A stretch of 64,000 nt of DNA from Eledone cirrhosa (taxonomy: Eukaryota): the NCBI GenBank assembly GCA_964016885.1, contig OZ024742.1, forward strand, positions 153,760,001-153,824,000, read 5' to 3'. Position 1 is the first letter of the stretch; the number at the start of each line of letters is the position of its first letter. Shown here piece by piece: positions 3,857-64,000 of this stretch. Position numbers and translations under genes: made by a program. The notes under the pieces are model-generated. The model was not told where the DNA came from, did not search any database, and saw nothing but the letters and a program-made list of their open reading frames with translations.

Positions 3857-4006
3857 TTTATATATATATATATATAATGGAATATATGGAGAGTAGAAAT
3901 GGCTGTGGAGTTGCCCCACCATTCGTATCTGTTTACCTGTCTCTCTTCCTCCACCTAATTTTGTTATCCCAAGAACTTAATTTAGTTATTGTATCGCCCT
4001 AGCTGG

Positions 4007-4073
4007 AGGTATATGGTCGGTAATACAAAGAAATACCTATGATGGCTAGTAGACCACTGATGATGGATAGTCC
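4007..4073 (+). ncRNA. Candidate non-circularly permuted hammerhead ribozyme (copy A)
   Basis: AGGTAT-A-TGGTC...GAA-ATACCT...GACCA-CTGATGA. Stem III is 4007-12/4033-38 (6 bp) and stem I is 4014-18/4052-56 (5 bp). All core nucleotides are present. Confidence 0.6.
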
Positions 4074-4563
4074 TGGCTTCTATTTCTAATTCTTTATTAT
4101 ATATATCATATTTGCAACAACACAGATCGCCATTTTTCATTCATATATGCTTTCCCCTTCGCTGTGACCTGTCTTTTTTCTCTTCCCTTGCAGCTATCCT
4201 CTTTCTCTCTCTCTCTCTTTCTCTCCTTCTCCCTCTTAATTTCACTCACCCCCTCTGCTAGTCAGCCTCTCACAGCTAGCCTCTTCCTCATATTTTCACT
4301 CACTCACTCCCTGCTACTCATCCTCTCTCTCACTTCCTTCGTCATCCCACACCCTACGAAATTCTTTCCTCGCTCACATTCGGACGACCAAGATGTGTCC
4401 TTTGCCTTCTCGTCAATATTCACAAGTTTTTATGTTCAAAATGAATCATTGACTTAATTTTATCATATGTGGCCGACCATTCGTGTATTTACCTGTCTCT
4501 CTTTCTGCACCCAACTCTTTTTATCCCAATAACCTAATTTAGTCATTGTATTGCCCTAGCCGG

Positions 4564-4630
4564 AGTTATATGGTATGTAATGAGAAGAAATACCTATGAT
4601 GGCTAGTATACCACTGATGATGGAGAGTCC
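4564..4630 (+). ncRNA. Candidate permuted hammerhead (copy B)
   Basis: Stem I TGGTAT/ATACCA is compensatory relative to TGGTC/GACCA in copy A. Stem III has one mismatch. GAA and CTGATGA are intact. Confidence 0.55.
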
Positions 4631-5023
4631 TGGCTTCTATTTCTAATTCTTTATTAGATATATCGTATTTGCAACACACAGCTCGACATTTTTCATTTAT
4701 ATATATATATATATCGGTGTCCTGTATGTGTGTACACTTATATGTGTGTGTGAGTAAGAATGTTGGTAACATAACATTATATAAATCTGTCCTATTCCTT
4801 AGCAACACAGAACATTTCTTTACAATTTGATGATGAATATCATCAGAGCATTAGAAGCGAGATTATAGAGTATCCCCCTCCCCGCCAAAGAAAACGTATT
4901 TTTGAATGCCATCTACATACATTGTTAGTGATAAACAATCCGTAGTAAATAACATTCTTAAATAACTTATAATGCATTGAAGTAGCTATTAATTCCATTC
5001 AATGGGTTATGCATAACCATATG

Positions 5024-25289: not shown

Positions 25290-25786
25290 GTATAAATGGC
25301 ATCTCTCTCCCCCTTACCTCTCCTTCTCCCTCTTAATTCCATTCACGCCCTCTGCTAGTGACCCTCTCTCGGCTAGCTTCTTCCTCACACTTTCACTCAC
25401 TCACTCTCCGCTACTCACCTTCCCTCTCACTTCCTCCATCGTCCCACACCGTGCGTAATTCTTTCCTCGCTTACTTTCGCATGGTTGGGACGTGTCTCTC
25501 GTCTTCTCATCAATATTCACAAGTTCTTATGTTCAAACGAATCAATGACTTGATTTTCTCATTTTTTCCTCTCTTTACTTTGCCTCACCATTAATGTTTG
25601 TTTAACTGTCTCTCTTTCTCCACCCAATTCTTTATAGCCCAAAAACTAATTTTAGTTATTGTTTGCGCTAGCCTGAGGTATCTGGTCTTTAATGCAAATA
25701 ATATCTATGATGGATAGTCCTATTTCTAATTCTTCATTTTAATTTGTATATCCCAATGCAACAACAAAGCGCGCAATTTTTCATTC

Positions 25787-25982: not shown

Positions 25983-26043
<61 letters not shown>

Positions 26044-26049
26044 TATATG

Positions 26050-26343
26050 TAAATATGATAATAATGGAGCTGCGGCGTTGCATATGGGTTACTTATGAAA
26101 AGGTCTGTCCTTCATCAGTGATCTTCCAACCATCATAGGCATTTCATCGCTTTAAAGACTATATACCTCCGGTTGGTGCGAGCAACGGCTAAAAAAAGTC
26201 GCTGGGAGACGTAAATAATTATTTACGTGTCCCAACGACTTTTTTCAGACGTTGCTCGAACCAACCGGAGGTATATGGTCTTTAAAGCGATGAAATGCCT
26301 GTGATGGTTGGAAGATCACTGATGAAGGACAAACTTTTTCATA
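26050..26343. repeat. Palindrome of permuted-HHR subfamily 2
   Basis: Centre at 26218|26219, arms about 125 bp, flanked by (TA)n. Confidence 0.85.
26269..26330 (+). ncRNA. Candidate permuted hammerhead (copy D; mirror copy on - strand at about 26107-26168)
   Basis: AGGTAT-A-TGGTCTTT-aaagcgat-GAA-ATGCCT-gtgatggttg-GAAGATCA-CTGATGA-A. Stem III is 6 bp; stem I is 8 bp including G-U pairs. Confidence 0.6.
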
Positions 26344-26385
26344 TATATATATATATATGTATATGAATATATATGAATATATGTA

Positions 26386-26439
<54 letters not shown>

Positions 26440-26457
26440 TATATATATATAGATACA

Positions 26458-26577
<120 letters not shown>

Positions 26578-26978
26578 AGTATGTTTGTATGTTTCGAGAT
26601 ATAAAATCGAAAATTCGTGATATATATATAGACTTGATATACGTGTTGTTACTTTCAATTCCATTAATGGCAGTGATTCAAATAAGACACAAAAACACTC
26701 CAAAAACATGAACTCTATATTTTTAGATAAATTAAACAGCATCACTTGGAGGAGAAAACACTAACACCTTTAAAACAGAAACAAAAAAAATGTTGATCTA
26801 AGTGACTAAGACAGATAGACATGAATGAAAACTAATTTTCTTTTGATTTTGATACACTTAGATATTTTACATATAAAGTCTCAAATTTCACACACCAATA
26901 TTGAGATATCTCTGTATAAATCTCAATAGTACATTGCACATACAGTAACACAGACACTCATATGGGTATATATATATA

Positions 26979-30954: not shown

Positions 30955-31026
30955 GATGTGTTGGTGTAAATGGTAGCACAGTGGTCTGGATAACCAAAGA
31001 TGTGGGTTCGACTCCCATGTACGTCA
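30955..31026 (+). tRNA. tRNA-like pseudogene or orphan SINE head
   Basis: Cloverleaf with GATGTGT/GTACGTC acceptor (wobble-rich), GTGT/GCAC D stem, TGGT-CTGGATA-ACCA anticodon arm and GTGGG-TTCGACT-CCCAT T arm. A GGA anticodon with a short variable arm is atypical. Confidence 0.5.
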
Positions 31027-32748: not shown

Positions 32749-32796
<48 letters not shown>

Positions 32797-33011
32797 GTTA
32801 AAAATGTACATCCATATATGTATACTGAAATACTAGTATGCATATGAATACACACACGTATACATGTGTAGATGTACCAAGTCTTTCACTGGTTACTTTA
32901 CTGTGAGTATCCAGCTATTCTGTATGTAAACACACAGACAAACCGGTTTTTAGAGTCATACTGGTTTTTGAGGAAACACCTTTCCTCTATTCTGCAGAAA
33001 GCCAGACAAGG

Positions 33012-33056
33012 AATATTGAACTAGTTTCGTTGTTGTTACAACTCATCAGCAATATT
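33012..33056 (-). ncRNA. Minimal type I hammerhead (also 33478-33522 mutated, 33943-33987 intact)
   Basis: AATATTG-CTGATGA-GTTGT-AACA-ACAAC-GAAACTAGTT-CAATATT. Confidence 0.9.
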
Positions 33057-34364
33057 TACCTATCTACCGGCCATTCTGGAGAATCGTAAAAGCACATATC
33101 GTTATATGCTTTTTCTATGAAAATTTGTAGTGGGCAGACTAATTTGCATAGAGTGTGAGTACGTACCGGTTCAACGGAGACGATAAAAACAAAAAACGAA
33201 ACGAAATTAAATTTCGTTTCGTTTGTAACTCACTTTTGTATGACTGACGCTTAAACAATTAAGTTAAAAATGTACATCCATATATGTATACTGAAATACT
33301 AGTATGCATATGAATACACACACGTATACATATGTAGATGTACCAAGTCTTTCACTGGTTACTTTACTGTGAGTATCCGGCTATTCTGTATGTAAACACA
33401 CAGACAAACCGGTTTTTAGAGTCATACTGGTTTTTGAGGAAACACCTTTCCTCTATTCTCCAGAAAGCCAGACAAGGAATATTAAACTGGTTTCGTTGTT
33501 GTTACAACTCATCAGCAATATTTACCTATCTACCGGCCTTTCTGGAGAATCGTAAAAGCACATATCGTTATATGCTTTTTCTATGAAAATTAGTAGTGGG
33601 CAGACTAATTTGCATAGAGTGTGAGTACGTACCGGTTCAACGGAGACGATAAAAACAAATAACGAAACGAAATTAAATTTCGTTTCGTTTGTAACTCATT
33701 TTGTATGACTGACGCTTAAACAATTAAGTTTAAAATGTACATCCATATATGTATACTGAAATACTAGTATGCATATGAATACACACACGTATACATATGT
33801 AGATGTACCAAGTCTTTCACTGGTTACTTTACTGTGAGTATCCAGCTATTCTGTATGTAAACACACAGACACACCGGTTTTTAGAGTCATACTGGTTTTT
33901 GAGGAAAGACCTTTCCTCTATTCTGCAGAAAGCCAGACAAGGAATATTGAACTAGTTTCGTTGTTGTTACAACTCATCAGCAATATTTACCTATCTACCG
34001 GCCTTTCTGGAGAATCGTAAAAGCACATATCGTTATATGCTTTTTGTATGAAAATTAGTAGTGGGCAGACTAATTTGCATAGAGTGTGAGTACGTACCGG
34101 TTCAACGGAGACGATAAAAACAAATAACGAAACGAAATTAAATTTCGTTTCGTTTGTAACTCAGTTTTGTATGACTGACGCTTAAACAATTAAGTTAAAA
34201 ATGCACATCCATATATGTATACTGAAATACTAGTATGCATATGAATACACACCGGTACGTACTCACACTCTATGCACAATAATCTGCCCACTACTAATTT
34301 TCATACAAAAAGCATATAACGATATGTGCTTTTACGATTCTCCAGAAAGGCCGGTAGATAGGTA

Positions 34365-34409
34365 AATATTGCTGATGAGTTGTAACAACAACGAAACTAG
34401 TTCAATATT
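34365..34409 (+). ncRNA. Minimal type I hammerhead (inverted unit)
   Basis: 7-bp stem I, 5-bp stem II, palindromic stem III AACTAGTT. Predicted GUU cut after 34402. Confidence 0.9.
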
Positions 34410-34811
34410 CCTTGTCTGGCTTTCTGGAGAATAGAGGAAAGGTGTTTCCTCAAAAACCAGTATGACTCTAAAAACCGGTTTGTCTGTGTGTTTACATACA
34501 GAATAGCTGGATACTCACAGTAAAGTAACCAGTGAAAGACTTGGTACATCTACATATGTATACGTGTGTGTATTCATATGCATACTAGTTTTTCAGTATA
34601 CATATATGGATGTACATTTTTAACTTAATTGTTTAAGCGTCAGTCATACAAAAGTGAGTTACAAACGAAACGAAATTTAATTTCGTTTCGTTATTTGTTT
34701 TTATATATATATATATATATATATATCGTTTCTGAATTTGTTTAGCAAGATTCTTTATCTGAAATCGTGTGTTGAAACCGATATTGTTATACTTTGGCCC
34801 TCCCAAAGTAT

Positions 34812-34949: not shown

Positions 34950-35612
<663 letters not shown>

Positions 35613-39173: not shown

Positions 39174-39749
<576 letters not shown>

Positions 39750-39880: not shown

Positions 39881-39954
<74 letters not shown>

Positions 39955-41500
39955 GAAAATAAAACAAAGAAGCCTTCAATACATCAAAAGTCTTTATTAG
40001 CAAACAATGTTTCGTCCTATTAAGGACTCATCAGGGCAATTAAATCTAAAAGAAGCACTATCGGCCAATACAAGCCGAAAACTCAGAAGAATATGGAGTG
40101 TACATACACTGAAGTATTGGAAGATTATGGGTAAAAATATATAATACAAATCACTAAGGAGGTGGATAACATCTTGAACCATATTACAAATATAGTCCAA
40201 AGCCAAAAAACTAGAGTTAAACAAAGGTGGTTATATAGATGGTTTATAGATGGTTTATTTGGATTCTTCATTGGATAACTCCCCCCCCCTCCCCCCATGC
40301 ACGCATAAACTTATTGCTAACCCCTTCAAATATATTATGATTATATTTAATCCCCTTTTTTATGCTCCTTTGATACAGTATATTGATTACGATTTTATGT
40401 TCCTTTGTATCCCACATACATTTCTTTTTTTCTGTCCACATTAGCCTACCATAATTCTGCTTAAAATCAGTTTATTAGATAACGTTATTTAAATGATAGT
40501 AGAATATTTATAGTTGATATCTTAATGTTTAGGGATTTTGATTACTTAAACCATAGCTAATATTGTATTGCCTTATTAAGTATTTTAAATATTTTCAATA
40601 TTAATTTATCAAATAGGGTTTTCTAGTCATTTATCCGGGTTGTTTCCTAAGTTTTTACTTAACTGCATGTGAGACCTAAGTAAATACTTTTGTTTTTGTT
40701 TTTTGATTTCCGGTCGATTTTATTTATTTATTTATTAATACTACTGTGCATAGTATTTTCTGTCTGGCCCTTATTCACTCATTCACATATGTGTATGTTT
40801 ACCAACCTTGTAATTATAAGTTATTATATACTATACTATGTTCATTATTTTATATTGAAGTTGTTATTCAACTCTTTGTAAATGTACTATTGATCTTTAT
40901 TACTTACCGATGATTTTATGTACCATTACTTTTAATCATTTCATTACTTCATGTTATACTGTATATTATATATACGTATTATTTTGATTTTTATTCCTAT
41001 TATGCTTATTTATATTTAAACTCTTAATAAGGTTTAATTGGTGCTGTTAATGATGGAAATGTGTATTGATGTATATGTATATGTGCGCACGTGTGTGTAT
41101 ATATATACATATGTATATTGTGCCTTTTAATTTTAATTTTAATTTTTAATATTGTTACAAGTATATTATATTATATTATATTATATTGTATTACATATAG
41201 TACTATAATTCCCGCTCTATATAACCACCTTTGTTTAGCTCTAGTTTTTTTTGCTTTGGACTATATGTGTAATATGCTTCAAGATGTTATCCACCTCCTT
41301 AGTGATTTTTATTATATATGTTTACCCATAATCTTCCAATACTTTAGTGTATGTACACTCCATATTCTTCTGAGTTTTCGGCTTGTATTGGCCGATAGTG
41401 CTTCTTGTAGTTTTAATTACCCTGATGAGTCCTTAATAGGACGAAACATTGTTGGCTAATAAAGACTTTTGATGTATTGAAAGCTTCTTTGTTTTATTTT
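39955..41500. mobile_element. PLE-type 3' fragment with an inverted terminal copy (arms 39955-40236 and 41218-41500)
   Basis: HHR CC-CTGATGA-GTCCT-TAAT-AGGAC-GAAACATTGTT-GG at 41416-41460 (+), with a mirror at 39996-40040 (-). Confidence 0.82.
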
Positions 41501-41603
41501 CTTAATTCTTCGGCTCTGTTTAATTACATTGAGCTATACCTTTTACTGTCATTTCTATAATACGAAGAGGGTGTTTAACTCCAACACGCTCCAATATTTT
41601 AAT

Positions 41604-41681: not shown

Positions 41682-42552
41682 GTCTTCTTGTCAATATTCA
41701 CAAGTTCTTATGTTCAAATGAATCATTGACTTGATTTTCTCATTTTTTCCTCTCTTTACGTTGCCTCACCATTCATGCTTGTTTAGTTGTCTCTCTTTCT
41801 CCACCCAATTCCTTTTATCCCAATAAATTATTTATGTTATTGTTCGCGCTAGCCTGGGGCATCTGGTCTTTCATCCGAAGAAATACGTATGATGGCTAGT
41901 AGAGCACTGATGATGGATAGTCCTATTTCTAATTCTTCATTCTAAATTGTATATCACTTATGCAACAACACAGCTCGCCATTTTCCATTCCTATATGCTT
42001 TTCCCTTAGTTGTGACCTGTCCTTTTCTCTTCCCTTACTGTTATCCTCTTTCTCTCTCCCCCTTCTCTCTCCTTCTCCCTCTTACTTTCATTCAACCCCT
42101 CTGTGAGACACCCTCTCTCGGCTAGCCTCTTCCTCACTCTTTCACTCACTCACCCTCTGCTACTCACCTTCCCTCTCACTTCCTCCATCGTCCCACACTG
42201 TTCGTAATTCTTTCCTCGCTTACTTTCCCATGGTTGGGATGTGTCTCTCGTGTTCTCGTCAATATTCGCAAGTTCTTATGTTCAAATGAATCATTGATTT
42301 GATTTTCTCATTTTCTCCTCACTTTACGTTGCCTCACCATTCGTGTTTGTTTACCTGTATCTCTTTCTCCACCCAATTCTTTTTATCCCAATAACTTATT
42401 TTAGTTATTGTTCGCGCAAGCCCGAGTTATCTGGTTTTAATGAAAATACGTATGATGGCTAGTAGATCACTGATGATGGATAGTCCTATTTCTAATTCTT
42501 CATTTTAATTTGTATATCACATATGCTACAACACAGCACGCCATTTTTCATT
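41680..42552 (+). repeat. CT-rich family, about 1.5 tandem units (period about 568) with decayed permuted motifs
   Basis: Motifs at about 41857-41913 and 42425-42476 retain AT-C-TGGT, ATAC and CACTGATGA. Confidence 0.8.
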
Positions 42553-42585: not shown

Positions 42586-42702
<117 letters not shown>

Positions 42703-42736
42703 TTACAGTAATCAAAGTACAGTTTAAGTCATTTAT

Positions 42737-42785
42737 TTGCTTACAATTGTTTCCTCCAAACCGAGGTTTGGATTCTTCGGAGCAA
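42737..42785 (-). ncRNA. pLTR hammerhead, U4C core variant (copy at 47044-47092 has G8 mutated)
   Basis: TTGCT-CCGAAGA-A.TCCAAAC-CTCG-GTTTGGA.G-GAAACAATTGTA-AGCAA. Confidence 0.78.
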
Positions 42786-44317
42786 CTATTTACTGATCTA
42801 TAACATACTTGACCTCCTTTTCAACCCAAGAGACACATAAAACATATGCGCATATTGATCAACAGTGGGGTGACATTCATCAAATGATATAGCATGGCAA
42901 TTTACATATAAAGGTTACAGGATAAAAATAAAATAAAAACAAGTGTGAAAATAAAGATAAACATGAAGCGTTGGCAGTCTATGAAGATAAAGCAAGAGGA
43001 AAGCTTAGAGTAGTCAGTGTATGAAACAATCTCCCGTGTAGCATGCACGCGTGTCTTATTTATACATGATTAGAGTGCGTCAGAATGATATTTGCAGGGT
43101 CAGGCAGTTGAAGCAGGCAATCGATCTTATTATGTAGGCTGAATTATTAAGTCATTTATTCTCATACATCTGTATGATATACAGTCTCGGATGCGGGGAA
43201 ACACCAAAATATCAAAAACTTTCAACATACTATAAACCTTATTGTATCGTAGGCAAGGCCGTATCACTGTCCTTGCTCACACCACCACTCACATAATCCA
43301 TGAGACGCAATATATATAGGGAACAGGCGTCTATCGTATAATTCGCGGTGGTTCAGCATATAGTCAAGCTATAAACCGTATGCAGTCGGTTCTTAATTAA
43401 TATATCATGCTGTCCAGATTCCGGAAGTGCCTGAATGACTAAGGGGAATTAATGCGTAAGGGGAGGTAACTAGCTAGTTATCTTAGTTACATTACTATCC
43501 TAAACTACATTAATGGTGATTCAAATACGTGCCTATCATGTGAAGTTATAACTAATATCTAGAGTATGTTACCCATTTATAGGTTAGAGAGTTGTCCATT
43601 AAGAAGTACAAGGGTGTATATATTAGGATGATTACCATCCGTTAATTAAGGGGTGTCATATCTGAACGTTCTATAAGAGGAGTCAGACTCTCAAGTCACT
43701 GCTCCATGCAAATGTAATATAACAGTAGGACCTGGTATGGTCCCACTATTATATATTCCACCCGGTAGGCTCCGGGTCATTGCATGTCTGCATCTCCAGT
43801 AAATCTTCGGTATGGTCCGGAGATCCAATCTCTCATATAAATGCACTAGTCTGGCCAACAAGCAATAGACAACCCCCGTCTCAAATATAAATCAATTATG
43901 TATCACATCTACAAGCTAGAGTGAAGTCTATGAATAGGTACTAAAGGAGTTCACATCAAGATGATTACGTGCATAATTCATTGAACTGACCGCTTACATT
44001 ATATATTCACATAACAATACGATTATCTATCTAATCATCAATCTATCTCTTGGTGGTAATCCATGCACAGGACTATGCTATCGCAACCAGTACCGTGTCC
44101 CCAATTTATACTAATCTTATATTTGTGCAATGCAGAATAAGTAGTCCACGGTCGAGATATCAGTATTAGAGGTACAAGGGGGTATTCCCAGGGTAGGTGG
44201 TACTAAAATGCTGTCAGTATTATCTTTAGAGTATAGAGATGGGTGTGGATGTGAGGTGTAAGGTGTGCTACTGATGTTAATTGCTAGGGGTGGTGCCGGT
44301 TCCTGTCTGACATTATT

Positions 44318-46790
44318 ATATATAGGGTTTAAAGTTTTGGAACGAGTGTCGGAAGCGGTGTTGGCAATTTGCGAACACTTCTGATTTTTTTTATTAAGGA
44401 GATTATGTTTAGAGAAGATGATAGTATGGGTCTCTAGTAGACAGAGGTTACAAAATTTATCAGGTGGTTTGTACGATGTTGCACTACCTACCACTTCCCA
44501 TTTAAGGGTATATATTTTATTTTTAGTTTTTAGATAGTGTATGTAGCTAGATAGTGATGTGGAGTTGGCTAGACTGTGTTTTTTGAAAGAGTGGAGGTGC
44601 GAATTGTATCTAGTTTTGAAGCAGTTAGAAGTGGAGCCTATGTAGATTTCAAAAGAGCTGTTAGTTGTGACTGTACATGAGTATATGATATCCTTGGTTA
44701 AGCATTTTTTATCTAAAGGGCAGGTTCTACTTGATCTACAGTTACAATTACTCTGGGTGCTAGTCTGCCGGTTACTATGCTGTGTAGAAGTTTGGATGTT
44801 AGCTATAGGGTTATGGTTATGCGGGTTGTGGTACGCAGCGTTAATGTTTACACTAGTGCTATTACTATTATTTCCATTGATATTACGGTTATTTGTTATA
44901 ATGTTACTTTGACTGTTATTTTGAATGTTATTTTGAAGGTTTATCGACCGTTGTGATTTAGTTTGTTGGAAGTAAGAATTAATTTTTCTTTTATTTGTAC
45001 TAGCTATGTGGTATGCTAAGTTAGGCGTAGTAGAGTATGAGATCTTAATAGTGTTTTTGTTTAAAAGGCCGTGGTACCTGTGTCCGGATGGGAAGTGTTT
45101 ATCTAGTAGTGAGAAGAAAGCCCTAGGAAGGTTGGTAGAGACGTTTAAATTGAAAGGAGGGTTGAAAAATGTATTATTTCTTCTTCTATTTCTGTTTTTT
45201 ATGTCTGGCGATTTGTTTCCTTTAATGTTCCTATGGTCATTTCTGTGGTGCGGGTTACTCTTGTTGTTACAATCCCTATTAGTGTGTGTGCAGTTGCTAT
45301 TCCTATTATTAAATTTTCCCATGGACATGTTTTGTGAAATGATGTTGTAGCTATGTGTTTTTGTAGGTAGGAACTCTATCCCTGTATTATGGCCTGATCT
45401 AGCTAATGCCTGATTATAATACTGCGAGTTATTGTTAAATGTGTTTATGTCATAGGATAGATTAGAGATTCTATTAGATACTCCCTTAGAGATAGAGTTC
45501 AATATAGAATTAGGGTGGTTAGACTTGGTATCTACGTAGATGAGTTTTTCATTAGGTTTGTGGAAAGGTGCATAAATCATTGAGTCTAAGTAGAGTGTGG
45601 CATCTAGGAAGTTGACGTTTTTGGTGTTTTTCTCCATGGTAATACTAAGGTTAAAGTTTTTGAATGTTTAGTGCAAAAGTTTTCTAGTCCTTTCTATATT
45701 GAATTTTTTATAGTCTATAAGTAGAAGTGCATCGTCGCGATACAAACCACCGCTGAGGTACGGAAGTTCCCTGTGGATTAGGTTAAGTAAGTATAGGCCA
45801 ACCAAATCAGTGACCTGCGCCGAGTCACTAGACCCCATAGTAATGTCGAAGTTGTTTTGCGTATCCTTGCGGGTTCATAATTAGTCCTCAAAGGTGATTA
45901 TTGTTTTACGGGCCGCAAGTATGACATCACTCTGGGGTCTAGTCAAGTCACTATTGTCTATGGCCATTATAAGTGCCTTATTTAGTAGGATAGGGGAAAT
46001 AGAGGTGCAGTAAGAGTTGATATCAAATTGAATAAATTTGTTATCCTTGTTATCTATGATATTTTTGAACCATTCAATCACTTCACCCGTATTTCCCCAA
46101 ATCTTGTGTTTAATCTGTGGGATGATTTTGTCTAGGATTTTTTTTACTGATAATGCCAATGTCAGACCTGGAAAGGCAGATTAGTCTAATCGAGGGGTTG
46201 CTAATGAAGTCTACCTTATGGTCCTTCAGAGAGAATCTAGGGAGGTTTGGGGTGTAAGGTTGTGTATGTCTCTGAAGCCCTAGTTTGGATACTATATTAT
46301 AGCCTTCCATATTAATATCTTCTAAGTTTTTCATAGTGGTTTTCTCGTAGCTTTTATGTAGTTCATTATATATAAACTTTCTATACGTATTATAATCTAG
46401 GCTGTATATCTTATTAGTTTTGTCGGCATGTACAAAAATGTTACTACTAGTTTTGAAGTCATTAATAGAGGTGCTAAGTTTGTTTAAGAAGGTGTTGTTT
46501 TTATTATGGTGTTTTTTGTATTTAATGTTTTTAACTAGTTTAATTAAGTCGTTTTCGAAGAGGTTTAGTAGTGTGTTATGAGGGGGGCTTCTAAATGTTT
46601 TAAAGCCGAAGGAGTCAAATTTGTTGGTGTTATTATCCTTGCCAGATTTGTTTCTATCATAATGGAATGTCCTCCATCTCACTCTATTGATAAAGGAGTT
46701 TACACTGTTGAACAACAACTTTTCATATGTATTTTTGGTCGGTAAAGGTATGTTCTTGGTTGACATAGGGAGTTGGTCTTTGATTAGCAT
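44318..46790 (-). pseudogene. PLE RT-GIY-YIG polyprotein, frameshifted and with stops
   Basis: ADKTN, LKDHK, PSIRLI, FIQFDI, FDITMGSSDSAQVTDLVGL, GLYRDDAL, VNFLDATL, SNHP, FNPPF, CNC...CPLDKKCL...IIY...YIGST...FKTRYNSH...CNLCLLE...LLNKK. YRDD and this cysteine pattern fit the Naiad clade. Confidence 0.9.
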
Positions 46791-47977
46791 GCTGGTAATT
46801 TATGGTATATCAGCTCAACAAAATGGAGCAGTTATTAGTATTAAGGGTACTATTTATGGTTATGTATGCAATAAAACCTTTAATGGTAATATATTATATA
46901 TACAAACCCTAAATAGTGAGAGATAGTCATTAATTACTATCCTATTACCAGTAAGATAAATAGCTCAATGTAATAACATCGGTTGTTTTACAGAGCAGTT
47001 ATATAGAGATTACAGTAATCAAAGTACAGTTTAAGTCATTTATTTGCTTACAATTGTTTCCTCCAAACCGAGGTTTGGATTGTTCGGAGCAACTATTTAC
47101 TGATCTATAACATACTTGACCTCCTTTTCAACCCAAGAGACACATAACACATATGCGCATATTGATCAACAGTGGGGTGACATTCATCAAATGATATAGC
47201 ATGGCAATATACATATAAAGGTTACAGGATAAAAATAAAATAAAAACAAGAGTGAAAATAAAGATAACCATGAAGCGTTGGCAGTCTATGAAGATAAAGC
47301 AAGAGGAAAGCTTAGAGTAGTCAGTGTATGAAACAATCTCCCGTGTAGCATGCACGCGTGTCTTATTTATACATGATTAGAGTGCGTCAGAATGATATTT
47401 GCAGGGTCAGGCAGTTGAAGCAGGCAATCGATCTTATTATGTAGGCTGAATTATTAAGTCATTTATTCTCATACATCTGTATGATATACAGTCTCGGATG
47501 CGGGGAAACACCAAAATATCAAACACTTTCAACATACTATAAACCTTATTGTATCGTAGGCAAGGCCCTATCACTGTCCTTGTTCACACCACCACTCACA
47601 TAATCCATGAGACGCAATATATATAGGGAACACGCGTCTATCGTATAATTCGCGGTGGTTCAGCATATAGTCAAGCTATAAACCGTATCCAGTCGGTTCT
47701 TAATTAATATATCATGCTGTCCAGATTCCGGAAGTGCCTGAATGACTAAGGGGAATTAATGCGTAAGGGAAGGTAACTAGCTTTTTATCTTAGTTACATT
47801 ACTATCCTAAACTACATTAATGGTGATTCAAATACGTGCCTATAATGTGAAGTTATAACTAATATCTAGAGTATGTTACCCATTTATAGGTTAGAGAGTT
47901 GTCCATTAAGAAGTACAAGGGTGTATATATTAGGATGATTACCATCCGTTATATATATATATATATATATATATATA

Positions 47978-61354: not shown

Positions 61355-61539
61355 AATTTATTCCAGGCTGAATCGGAGGTAACCACAGTAAAATAGGTAC
61401 TCAATACATAGCAGAGTATAACAGTTTTAATATAGATGAGATTCTACAGGACTAGAACTGTTTCATTCTTGAGAAATCATCACAAATCCTGATGATTTCT
61501 CAAAAACGAAACAGTTCTAGTCCTATAGAATCTCATCTC
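61355..61539. repeat. Fold-back fragment centred just 5' of an HHR-like core
   Basis: 61434-61480 mirrors 61491-61539. + arm reads CTGATGA-TTTCTCAAAAAC-GAAACAGTTCTAGTC. Confidence 0.7.
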
Positions 61540-61899: not shown

Positions 61900-64000
61900 G
61901 AGGTGTCCTACACGAGTGAAAGTATAAAGAAATAAAGATGAAATCGAAAATACAACTGGAGTCTTATTTTAAAAAATATATATATATTTATTTGGTTCCT
62001 TTACCGATTTCGCAGTTCTTCTGCTTTTCAAAAGTAGAGTTCAGATGGAGGGTCTGTGGTTTTTCTCACATCTAGTTGGTCTCTGAATGTTACTTGTTTT
62101 ATATGGACAATGTGGCTCGAAATGCCAGGTTTTTCGAGAAGTAATTTGATTGGTTGGTCAATAATTATAATAAATTTCACGCCAGTTCGCGTTATAAAGT
62201 TCTTCAAACACGGGGGGGGGGGGGTCACAGGTTGTTTTTTTCATATTTGAATTTCTTTTTACTTAAAATAAAGGGGGGCTCACGAAGTTTTTTTCTAATA
62301 AACGTAATTTGATTGGTTAAAAATGAAATTATGGCTGTCATGTGAACAAGTTTTCATTAAATTTTCGCGCCGTTATTTGGAAATCTATTCTGTATCCTTT
62401 TTAGAGAATTTTATGACAAGCAAAAGATAATGGTCAAGAGAAATTGGATGGGAGAATTGTTCTGGTTCAGTGAATATGGTTAGTTCGCTGGGGTGTCAGA
62501 ATTCAGATTTTCTATTGAAGTAAAGAAAGTAAAGATGTGTATGTTTATTTGTGTGCTTGTGTGTGTGTGTGTGTGTGTATATATGTATGTAGGAAAGTGA
62601 TTCTATTAGTAGAAATGGGGGAGGGAGTTGTGTGGGTATGGGTGTTATGTGTGTGGGAGTATGGTTAGCATGTTAAGATGTAGATAATATATATATATTG
62701 TGTGTGTGTGTAGGAAAATGATTCCTTAATAGGAATATTTTTGAATGAACATATTTTCCTTACTTATACGTATTTGTTCTGTTGTATTGTCAGTGCAAAT
62801 GTATGTTAAGGTTTATTTAGTTCGGGTTTTTATTTTCTAAAGTAGAAGGTGTTATGTGCGTGTGTGTATGTCATATTATGGTGTTGACATAATGTATATT
62901 AAACCATATTTAATGCTGGTCTATATTTTTGAATAAACATATTTCCCTTATTTATTCGTATTTGTTCTGTTGTATTGTTAGCGCAAAGGTAAAGTGGGAA
63001 GACTTGAAATGTGGGTGTCTTATTACTTGCGCATATGTCTAGATGTGCGCTTAGAGGTATCTCTCTCGTGGTTGGATCTCGTAATTGTTGGCGATGAACT
63101 GTCATTCTGTTTCGGAGTGTGAGTTTAGTTTGTCCTATATAATCTTCATTGCATCCTTTACATTTAATGGCATAAAGCAGAATTTTTGATGAGCAAGTGA
63201 AGTGATTTTTTACAGTAAAATGTTGTCCTGATTTAAATGTATACGTGTTGCCTTCAATGAGGTGAGTGCAGGTTCCACAATTAGAGCGACCACATTTTTT
63301 TGACAGTTGGTTGTGGGTTTGTGGTAGGTAATTTGGCATTGGTGAGTAATGTTTTTAGTGATTTCGATTGTCTTTTGCTTTTGATTTTTTTGTGTGTTTC
63401 AAGGGCTTTTTTCATTCTTGGATTTTGGTTTAGTAGTGGGGTGTTCTTGTGAATAGTGTTGTAAGCTTCCGCATTTCTTGGGTTGTGTGTCGAGATATAT
63501 GATAGAATATTGGACGTACCTTGAATTTGTTTCTGTTTTCGTAATTCATCAATGCCTATTGCTTTAGCCCTTTCTATTCCATTATTTATTAGTAATGGTG
63601 GGTACTCTCTTTCGAGTAGAATTTCCTTTAGTTGTTGAAGTCTTTTATTTCGCGTTTTGGAGACAATTGTGCAAATTATTCTTGCTAGGTTAAAAGGAAT
63701 GTTCGTCTTCGTGTGCTTTGGTTGGTTGGAGGTGAATAGCAGGTATTGTTTGGAATCTGTTGGTTTGTAGTGTATGTCAGTTTCAATATTTGTGTCTTTT
63801 CTTAAATTAAGATGTCCAGAAATGGGAGTTGATCGTGGCTGTATTCCATTGTGAATTGGATGTGGTTATTGATGACGTTTATTAAGTTTTTGAAATCCTT
63901 CATTTGATCGAGTGTGTGGGACCAAAGAATGAGACAATCATGCAAGTAGCGTTTCCAATTCTCAGATAAATATTTGTGGAAGTTCAATCCGTATTTTGAT
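61900..64000 (-). mobile_element. Neptune-type PLE, decayed, running off the window end
   Basis: WKRYLHDCLILW...IQFTME...LPFLDILI (RT), KPTD, and CGRSNCGTC...FTCSSKILLYAIKCKGCNEDYIGQT...LRNRMTVH (GIY-YIG, 62899-63339). Decayed HHR at 61997-62036 (GCAG-AAGAA-CTGC-GAAATCGGTA). Confidence 0.88.

Follow-up and report, generated by a model that had tools for sequence, protein, structure and literature searches.

The palindromic insertion at positions 26050-26343 of the window, the whole stretch of 64,000 nucleotides of Eledone cirrhosa DNA that was analysed, carries on each of its arms an RNA motif that is real, selected and hammerhead-like, and that represents a new permutation of the hammerhead ribozyme. 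Self-cleavage by this motif is likely but unproven. The palindrome probably represents a fold-back insertion of a non-coding tandem passenger element of the Penelope type, likely derived from the 3' end of a Naiad retrotransposon, each unit of which has a predicted four-block hammerhead that would cut after A26275.

The palindromic insertion and its repeat family

The insertion, its flanks and the related copies in the window are listed here by position.

25988-26049, no strand: (TA)n tract flanking the insertion on the left
26050-26343, no strand: whole insertion, with its 5'-to-5' joint at 26218/26219
26050-26218, minus: left arm, with leader, ribozyme motif and 3' tail; stops in (TA)n ~60 nt past CUGAUGA
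26050-26093, minus: 3' extension ('tail'), on one arm only, with TGCAAC
26111-26181, minus: predicted ribozyme of the minus arm; 21/22 pairs, stem I having one A-C mismatch; cut predicted after 26162
26219-26343, plus: right arm, with leader and ribozyme motif; stops in (TA)n ~17 nt past CUGAUGA
26256-26326, plus: predicted ribozyme of the plus arm; 21/22 pairs, A-G mismatch in stem II
26344-26578, no strand: (TA)n-rich tract flanking the insertion on the right
3983-4634, plus: two tandem copies of the 3983-type subfamily (motifs 3983-4077 and 4540-4634), 557 bp apart
25653-25743, plus: 3983-type subfamily copy with an internal deletion
35315-35408, plus: copy of a third subfamily
41834-42490, plus: two tandem 3983-type copies (motifs 41834-41927 and 42402-42490), 563 bp apart

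The insertion consists of two 5'-truncated copies of a repeat, placed head-to-head and joined 5' to 5' with zero spacer. The palindromic arms (26094-26218 and 26219-26343) are 125 nt each and 93% complementary, both begin at the identical letter of the repeat unit, and both outer ends of the insertion run into (TA)n. The left arm is ~44 nt longer at its 3' end, reaching ~26050, and the resulting tail fits the one-sided extension described for Penelope-like insertions. The conserved blocks that an earlier note had named, GGAGGTATATGGTC, GAAATGCCT, TGATGG and CACTGATGA, are present on the plus arm (26267-26325) and mirrored on the minus arm, where the motif has one change, TATAGTC. A downstream ATGCAAC, also listed there as retained, is present in the left-arm tail and missing from the right arm, which stops at 26343; most relatives of the insertion have TTGCAAC or GTGCAAC at this place. 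Between the arms, 8 scored sites differ. Three variants of the right arm and one polymorphism recur elsewhere in family A; the four variants of the left arm are absent from all 71 family-A copies, a pattern consistent with two templates or with later mutation. RNA spanning both arms is predicted to fold into a hairpin at -204.8 kcal/mol (z -29), and the palindrome copy itself is probably silent as a ribozyme, as this long hairpin would bury the motif.

The repeat is abundant in the genome assembly of 3.0 Gb that was searched. A DNA search with the right arm returned 41 matches from the best 40 of 306 candidates, at 92-100% identity. Two disjoint exact patterns matched 6,176 and 6,362 times, with 0 and 1 matches for their reversed controls, and together give at least 12,538 copies of the motif in at least 11 subfamilies; what had been called a second subfamily is one among these. 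Contigs from 2 of the 4 listed sequencing runs bear on presence of the repeat only. The repeat is a tandem, non-coding unit of 445-644 bp (33 consecutive motif pairs, some in overlapping loci), the family-A units are mutually 83-97% identical, and no PLE protein motif was found within the repeat units.

Insertion anatomy was read from 197 pattern-derived instances, mostly the first places listed and on contig C1. An intact unit lies upstream of the motif in 33 of them, and in the other 164 the 5' junction falls inside the motif's own unit. A (TA)n tract follows the last unit within 20 nt in 132 of 163 cases and precedes 85 of the 164 5' junctions. The insertions end 10-90 nt beyond the ribozyme core, mostly in (TA)n, with variable 5' truncation and with the formation of tandem and inverted arrays, which is the anatomy of PLE-type insertions in (TA)n. 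Of the 164 5' junctions, 17 lie within 16-17 nt above GAAA and 19 in the 68 nt beyond, a weak excess (Poisson p 3e-5 against those 68 nt and 4e-3 against the overall rate). The cut is predicted 16 nt above GAAA, and most of the pile-up is 1-7 nt above it (14/17, plus one at -1). This is a weak hint of cut templates, and because most of the junctions lie away from the cut, stalling on structure is an equally likely cause.

The head-to-head arrangement in (TA)n is, as the earlier note held, common to the window's repeats with type I-order hammerheads at 32786-34704, a tandem of ~465-bp units, and at 39950-41600; these have spacers. The window holds several further elements. A near-perfect 217-bp palindrome at 39312-39749 has CTGAAGA on both arms beside its centre, and a fold-back junction inside hammerhead-like sequence is seen at ~61430-61520 and, in locus L065, near 1487-1579. 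On the minus strand, 42700-47600 holds a near full-length Penelope-like element that has reverse transcriptase (RT) and C-terminal endonuclease regions and is interrupted by stops and frameshifts; each of its ends has a direct repeat, inside which lies a type I-like hammerhead whose core is altered. A second PLE fragment, with a GIY-YIG domain, lies at 62899-63865 on the same strand. Pfam recognised the GIY-YIG domain only, in one of three PLE fragments. Rfam found no ribozyme in the window, and its one match, elsewhere, was tRNA-like (30955-31026, 47.1 bits, possibly the head of a SINE).

The predicted fold, its covariation and its conservation

The parse of the plus-arm motif, on which the comparisons depend, is as follows.

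26256-26259, plus: stem II 5' strand at the motif's 5' end; TCGA (TCGC in most family-A copies); partner 26287-26290
26261-26266, plus: interaction helix, upstream strand CCAACC; partner 26306-26311
26267-26269, plus: predicted kink-turn, unbulged strand; 3n, 2n, 1n = G, G, A
26270-26275, plus: stem III 5' strand; U16.1 = 26274, H17 = A26275; predicted cut after 26275
26276-26281, plus: stem I 5' strand; partner 26313-26318
26287-26299, plus: block G, with stem II 3' strand GCGA, T26291 (partner A26326), GAAA at 26292-26295 and stem III 3' strand at 26296-26299
26300-26305, plus: predicted kink-turn, bulged strand; 3-nt bulge, then G, A, U
26306-26311, plus: interaction helix, downstream strand GGTTGG
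26313-26318, plus: stem I 3' strand
26319-26326, plus: CUGAUGA, then the paired letter A26326, after which the chain leaves the ribozyme

Along the RNA the four blocks run in the order stem II 5' strand and interaction strand; stem III, UH site and stem I; stem II 3' strand, GAAA and stem III; and interaction strand, stem I, CUGAnGA and one letter. The elements of a hammerhead are thus in place, with a CUGAnGA/GAAA core, a UH site, stems I and III by the core and stem II by GAAA. The earlier description had the blocks of the motif, and the cut that it predicted after A26275 agrees with the one predicted by the present parse; it contained neither an upstream strand for stem II nor an interaction helix or kink-turn, and its start on the plus arm, 26269, lies inside a motif that actually starts at 26256. 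Its statement that the plus arm is the best-paired copy stands on 18 pairs (18/18) and, once stem II is counted, becomes a tie with the minus arm (21/22).

Covariation was assessed on 40 natural copies, hand-chosen from 96 and 30 distinct candidate stretches, with the subfamilies covered and truncated, chimeric and chance matches excluded. An 18-pair model of these copies is 95% paired with double changes at 16 pairs. With the upstream TCGC/GCGA helix added, the resulting 22-pair model has 95.0% of 880 cells paired and double changes at 19/22 pairs, and all five pairings covary across subfamilies; 0/500 shuffles equalled it and slid registers reached 30-41%, figures to be read with the kinship of the copies in mind, which the shuffle control ignores and which makes the cell counts overstate independent events. 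Stem I is 96% paired with double changes at 6/6 pairs, stem III 95% with 4/5, and the 6-bp interaction helix 94.6% with 5/6. RNAalifold recovers two nested helices, stem III and the interaction helix, unaided. The A15.1-U16.1 pair is invariant (40/40 copies), the pair at 11.1 is broken in 4/40 rows, and a family-A variant with an A-A mismatch beside GAAA multiplied nonetheless (L010, L018, L027, L050). A downstream partner for the GGUUGG strand was dropped by eye, as it breaks in another subfamily.

Outside the alignment, 179 of 252 unfiltered genomic instances form at least 20 of the 22 pairs, the low tail including 5'-truncated copies. The core pattern was also found at 54 viral and 119 metagenome loci (the metagenome represented by 9/64 parts), from which 45 and 117 instances were scored; because none of these 162 matches forms more than 14/22 pairs, they serve as a chance control.

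Stem II is where the parse departs from a simpler one. In the initial reading it was a single pair, 26291-26326, and this was dropped when the upstream strand tested as 95% paired. On that simpler reading the motif might be a plain type-SGC hammerhead of three blocks, comparable to the minimal hammerheads of Penelope elements, with a single base pair for stem II, activity perhaps confined to the dimer, and the TCGC/GCGA pairing as an accessory helix. The 26291-26326 pair does covary (UA 14, UG 12, AU 8 and CG 2 of 40), and minimal type I variants are described in PLEs in the text of PMC7229834; against this, the upstream helix directly abuts GAAA and shows double changes at 3/4 of its pairs, and the Naiad tails discussed below have, by eye, a helix of 4-6 bp that supplies the G-C pair next to GAAA. 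The three-block explanation is accordingly quite improbable, and the four-block parse is used in what follows.

Conservation of the core was examined across 256 instances, of which 154 passed a filter for intactness. Position U16.1 is U in 154/154 of these and H17 is A in 129, C in 23, U in 2 and G in 0, both sites lying outside the search patterns. An invariant U16.1 with an H17 that is never G is the pattern expected at a hammerhead cleavage site. The constancy of the RUGAU strand, GAAA and CUGAnGA is not independent, because these were built into the genome search patterns. When five units of other subfamilies are set against a family-A unit, 60/65 core letters and 147/205 stem letters are kept, in line with the selection across subfamilies proposed earlier, and the unit bodies show 43-61% identity to family A, with a shuffled control at 52%. 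Uniform divergence of motif and flanks, which the earlier note had set as the case against selection, is therefore not what the repeat displays: the core is kept and the body is at shuffle level.

It might be argued that the shared words are neutral leftovers of descent and the pairings chance products of an AT-rich repeat. The copies are indeed all related, and single-sequence folding energies are ordinary, single copies folding no better than shuffles (z -1.97, -1.10, +1.47 and +0.10). This explanation is already contradicted by the kinds of change that have occurred: over 11 families and 152 copies, on the 18-pair set and with families of fewer than 4 intact copies dropped, the pair is kept by 10/10 distinct between-family changes and by 15/53 private changes (Fisher p 2.6e-5). 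Together with the 22-pair covariation, the gap between the genomic instances and the chance matches, and the conservation of core and stems, this makes the neutral explanation very improbable indeed.

The Rfam hammerhead model gave no match at gathering score in the window, nor any at E <=10 on 26200-26360; at gathering score Rfam overlooked the window's type I-like copies too, and weak C/D snoRNA and miRNA matches, far below threshold, were set aside. A model built on the 40 copies recovers 8 window copies and one weak match (E 0.23), and a scan for CUGAnGA only sufficed to pick up the CUGAnGA and GAAA core words in the window copies.

Permutation and predicted kink-turn in comparison with known hammerheads

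Eckert et al. 2023 (PMC10085705) assumed in their text that the blocks S, G and C are uninterruptible, hence six orders, and all six permutations described there keep CUGAnGA joined to stem II. The type-SGC hammerhead is reported in that text from metatranscriptomes only, with rates of 0.007-0.19 per minute, and such RNAs are not described there from genomes of known organisms, one bacterial GCS candidate excepted. The Eledone repeat motif has the block order S-G-C. It shares with type-SGC (HRIMA-1 and variants, as presented in PMC10085705) the order site - GAAA - CUGAnGA, the crossing stems I and III, a helix connecting stems I and II at their far sides, a short stretch between stem I and stem II, and one extra letter after CUGAnGA. 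It differs in that the stem II 5' strand, which in type-SGC follows within 1-2 nt after CUGAnGA, stands at the motif's 5' end, so that the chain is open right after CUGAnGA. An Eckert-type downstream stem II was rejected, its two registers being 30% and 40% paired.

The relationship becomes clearer in shortSGC-1, the 3' end of which, as rebuilt by eye from the published oligonucleotides, consists of one U, the stem II strand, one letter and a 6-nt interaction strand. In the repeat motif this piece stands at the 5' end, and the connectivity of the helices matches by eye, with a 6-bp interaction helix and a 1-nt link to the stem II strand. Because the 3' piece of shortSGC-1 is found at the motif's 5' end, the motif is read as the type-SGC fold re-opened after CUGAnGA-N within block C, with the former ends joined. 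By prediction it works like a type-SGC hammerhead, yet it falls outside the membership of that type. A tested precedent for a chain break right after CUGAnGA-N was not met in the literature, and such a break could slow or stop catalysis. A crystal structure of a pseudoknotted hammerhead reportedly dates from 2024. Neither this topology nor any permuted hammerhead in a Naiad was met in the literature search, which covered the text of Eckert et al. and, mostly by keyword, their supplement, where a variant could have been missed; the term 'type-SGC' was met in one paper only, and a viral ribozyme paper of 2026 touches in its text on other permutations in passing only (PMC13725137).

The repeat also has parallels with the non-LTR retrozymes of animals. 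As the texts describe these (Cervera and de la Pena 2020, PMC7229834; Li et al. 2026, preprint 10.64898/2026.07.22.740005), they are non-coding tandem units with one ribozyme each, present in thousands of copies and linked to Penelope-like elements, and the Eledone repeat has such units, its ribozyme being a predicted one. The animal non-LTR retrozymes of PMC7229834 have type I hammerheads in units of ~150-450 bp, whereas the units here are 445-644 bp and carry a non-circular permutation, the motif order not being C-G-S. Monomeric linear and circular RNA in tissues is a further mark of the retrozymes.

Between stem III and the interaction helix lie, in most subfamilies, a bulge of 3 nt and then G-A, A-G and U-U or U-G, the signature of a standard kink-turn. 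The unbulged strand, which lies outside the search patterns, is UGA or GGA in 140/154 filtered copies, and an old divergent subfamily also has the signature. The -1b:-1n pair is C:G in the 11 large families, and 3n is G in family A, which the rules of Huang et al. 2021 (PMC8191799), as given in the text, class as folding in metal ions. The likeness to a standard kink-turn, as described in PMC8191799, is in the 3-nt bulge followed by tandem G-A and A-G; the difference is that the predicted one here lies inside a predicted hammerhead. A literature search on both terms met no report of a kink-turn within a hammerhead, and the text of PMC10085705 singles out this very junction as one for which the fit to the crystal structure is not obvious.

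The signature is not universal. The coral, jellyfish and crustacean Naiad tails and one repeat subfamily are without a kink-turn, and in that GAAACATC subfamily Watson-Crick pairs stand in place of the kink-turn G-A pairs and the core is kept, which makes it a natural control for the role of the kink-turn. The GAAACATC subfamily (L181, L167, L168, L190, L200) has 545 pattern matches including relatives, and a sub-variant of it has a 6-nt insertion in the unbulged strand; two copies of another subfamily have U or A at 2n.

These observations bear on whether the structure, although real, has lost catalysis and is kept because the reverse transcriptase uses it as a signal for recognition or packaging, or because its kink-turn is bound by a 15.5K/L7Ae-family protein that protects the RNA. 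The prevalence of the kink-turn signature would suit such a role, as would the failure of the 5' junctions to pile up exactly at the cut and the joining of CUGAnGA to stem II in all six permutations described by PMC10085705. A purely structural element, on the other hand, sits poorly with an invariant U16.1 and an H17 that is never G, with core letters better conserved than the stems, and with a subfamily that lost the kink-turn pairs and kept the core. Loss of catalysis is unlikely on this balance, and a cutting ribozyme is the preferred reading.

Naiads and the spread of the repeat

Craig et al. 2021 (PMC8557442) report Naiads to be without canonical hammerheads, and mark some of them, Naiad_Ovul included, as 'core' or 'half-core'. 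In their account both Penelope-like elements and Naiads form tandems, have inverted 5' copies and a tail on one side, and prefer (TA)n. The Eledone repeat resembles Naiads as presented in that text, since it prefers (TA)n, is truncated at the 5' end, forms partial tandems and has an inverted 5' copy and a one-sided tail. It differs in that it has no open reading frame and that no linked Naiad body was found in the genome.

The last ~400 letters of 48 of the 54 consensus sequences of PMC8557442 were parsed by eye. Nine of the 48 tails (Obim, Ovul, EuTe, Amil, Aacu, Anas, Plae, Naiad-2_Movir and the record before Naiad-4_Chem) have the four-block order with all helices, in hosts that comprise octopus, corals, jellyfish, an acanthocephalan and a clam shrimp; three Acropora tails are near-identical, as are two of Octopus, leaving about six independent cases. 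For the Esco tail the order is probable by the same means. Stem II in the nine tails is 4-6 bp, with an upstream strand that supplies the G-C pair beside GAAA (for example GACACC/GGTGTC, GGCTCC/GGAGCC and GGCCCC/GGGGCC). In Naiad_Obim and Naiad_Ovul the motif, the kink-turn signature and a similar leader are seen ~1 kb after the RT stop. In five nematode tails (Naiad-1_Nbra, the record before Hcon, Hcon, Hpol and Asuum) the by-eye parse gives type CSG, with stems I-III complete and one additional helix; the text of PMC10085705 had just two CSG sequences, both metagenomic. The other 33 tails gave no such parse by eye within the letters covered, and motifs could lie further upstream. Among the tails of PMC8557442, those of bivalves and hemichordates have a conserved GCGGGTG or ACGGGTG motif soon after the stop, without hammerhead words, and those of spiders and ostracods have CCCCTGA(C/A)GA with GAAA far upstream in several, and probably represent more permuted hammerheads. 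Permuted orders in Naiad tails would explain the reported absence of canonical hammerheads, and the motif, its cutting being predicted, is likely the missing ribozyme of the Naiads that show it. The suggestion in the earlier note that the motif holds the place of a normal hammerhead in PLE-type elements is supported by the PLE anatomy of the insertions and by the same architecture, seen by eye, at Naiad 3' ends.

Candidates for the autonomous RT-encoding elements with the motif, which the earlier note had proposed to seek, are by eye the published octopus Naiad consensus sequences; the genome searches met only decayed Naiads, none of them linked to the motif. Back-translated RT patterns gave 1 and 28 matches and a protein search 115, numbers that are lower bounds, as the searches score best candidates only and a rare intact Naiad could be missed. 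No intact Naiad was seen among these hits: the long matches among the 115 have stops, and in the 28 further pattern hits no open frame around the RT motif is longer than 233 aa. By eye, the decayed fragments are similar to the octopus Naiads already published. In 21 Naiad-remnant regions the motif is missing from the remnant's own 3' end, the two strong model hits both being on the opposite strand, and 14 aligned remnant tails retain merely a vague GAAA...GATGA trace. The single motif-bearing locus near a Naiad remnant was rejected as a linked element, being a separate insertion, and the PLE frames near the motif in L042, L057 and L202 were rejected as autonomous partners on the same ground. 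In the old subfamily G, no RT hit lies within 1.5 kb at 30 loci.

One alternative, which concerns the mobiliser only, is that the ribozyme reading is correct and that the recent spread was driven in trans by C-terminal-endonuclease PLEs with type I hammerheads, not by Naiads. The family-A units are closely similar to one another, yet every Naiad trace found is heavily decayed, and PLEs of the window have long open frames and the same (TA)n and head-to-head habit. Set against this are the match, by eye, of motif and leader to the 3' ends of octopus Naiad consensus sequences in PMC8557442, the type I-like hammerheads at the other PLE 3' ends inspected, and the chance that a rare intact Naiad escaped searches of this kind. 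Such an exchange of drivers is rather unlikely, though it deserves more weight than any other alternative considered here. For the origin of the repeat, a Naiad is the best guess, with a C-terminal-endonuclease PLE as rival driver of the young subfamilies.

One plausible course of events can be outlined for a Naiad-derived passenger. Transcripts of tandem units would be cut once per unit, as retrozyme work suggests (texts of PMC7229834 and 10.64898/2026.07.22.740005). The 5' product would retain three strands complementary to the 3' product (4 + 6 + 5 bp), a pairing that would clamp the ends, and with ~15 bp holding the ends of the monomer together, closure into a circle would be favoured. A Penelope-type reverse transcriptase, most likely that of a Naiad, may then prime at a nicked (TA)n tract and copy across the re-formed ribozyme; because insertions end past an intact ribozyme, the template must be uncut or re-closed there. 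At 26050-26343 the truncation point would be where a second copy was attached in reverse orientation, and RNA transcribed through both arms would fold into the long hairpin.

Taken to its full extent, the reading is a tentative one, in which we place somewhat less confidence than in its rejection. It holds that this would be natural hammerhead topology number seven, opened inside the CUGAnGA-stem II junction and active in animals; that it would be present in many Naiads and in passenger repeats, the nematode Naiads being CSG; that the cephalopod kink-turn may let a host protein of the L7Ae family fold or switch the ribozyme; and that the clamped ends would circularise monomers that serve as templates for the reverse transcriptase. 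If true, a covarying form at >12,000 copies in an animal genome would break the assumption of uninterruptible blocks and widen the known fold space, and it would make clear why searches by descriptor overlook RNAs of this kind. A kink-turn at the junction flagged by Eckert et al. would be a concrete structural answer and a possible protein handle on the ribozyme. In the context of Penelope-like elements, the motif offers a direct test of the question of Craig et al. why Naiads thrive without canonical hammerheads, and suggests that self-cleavage is general to Penelope-like elements.
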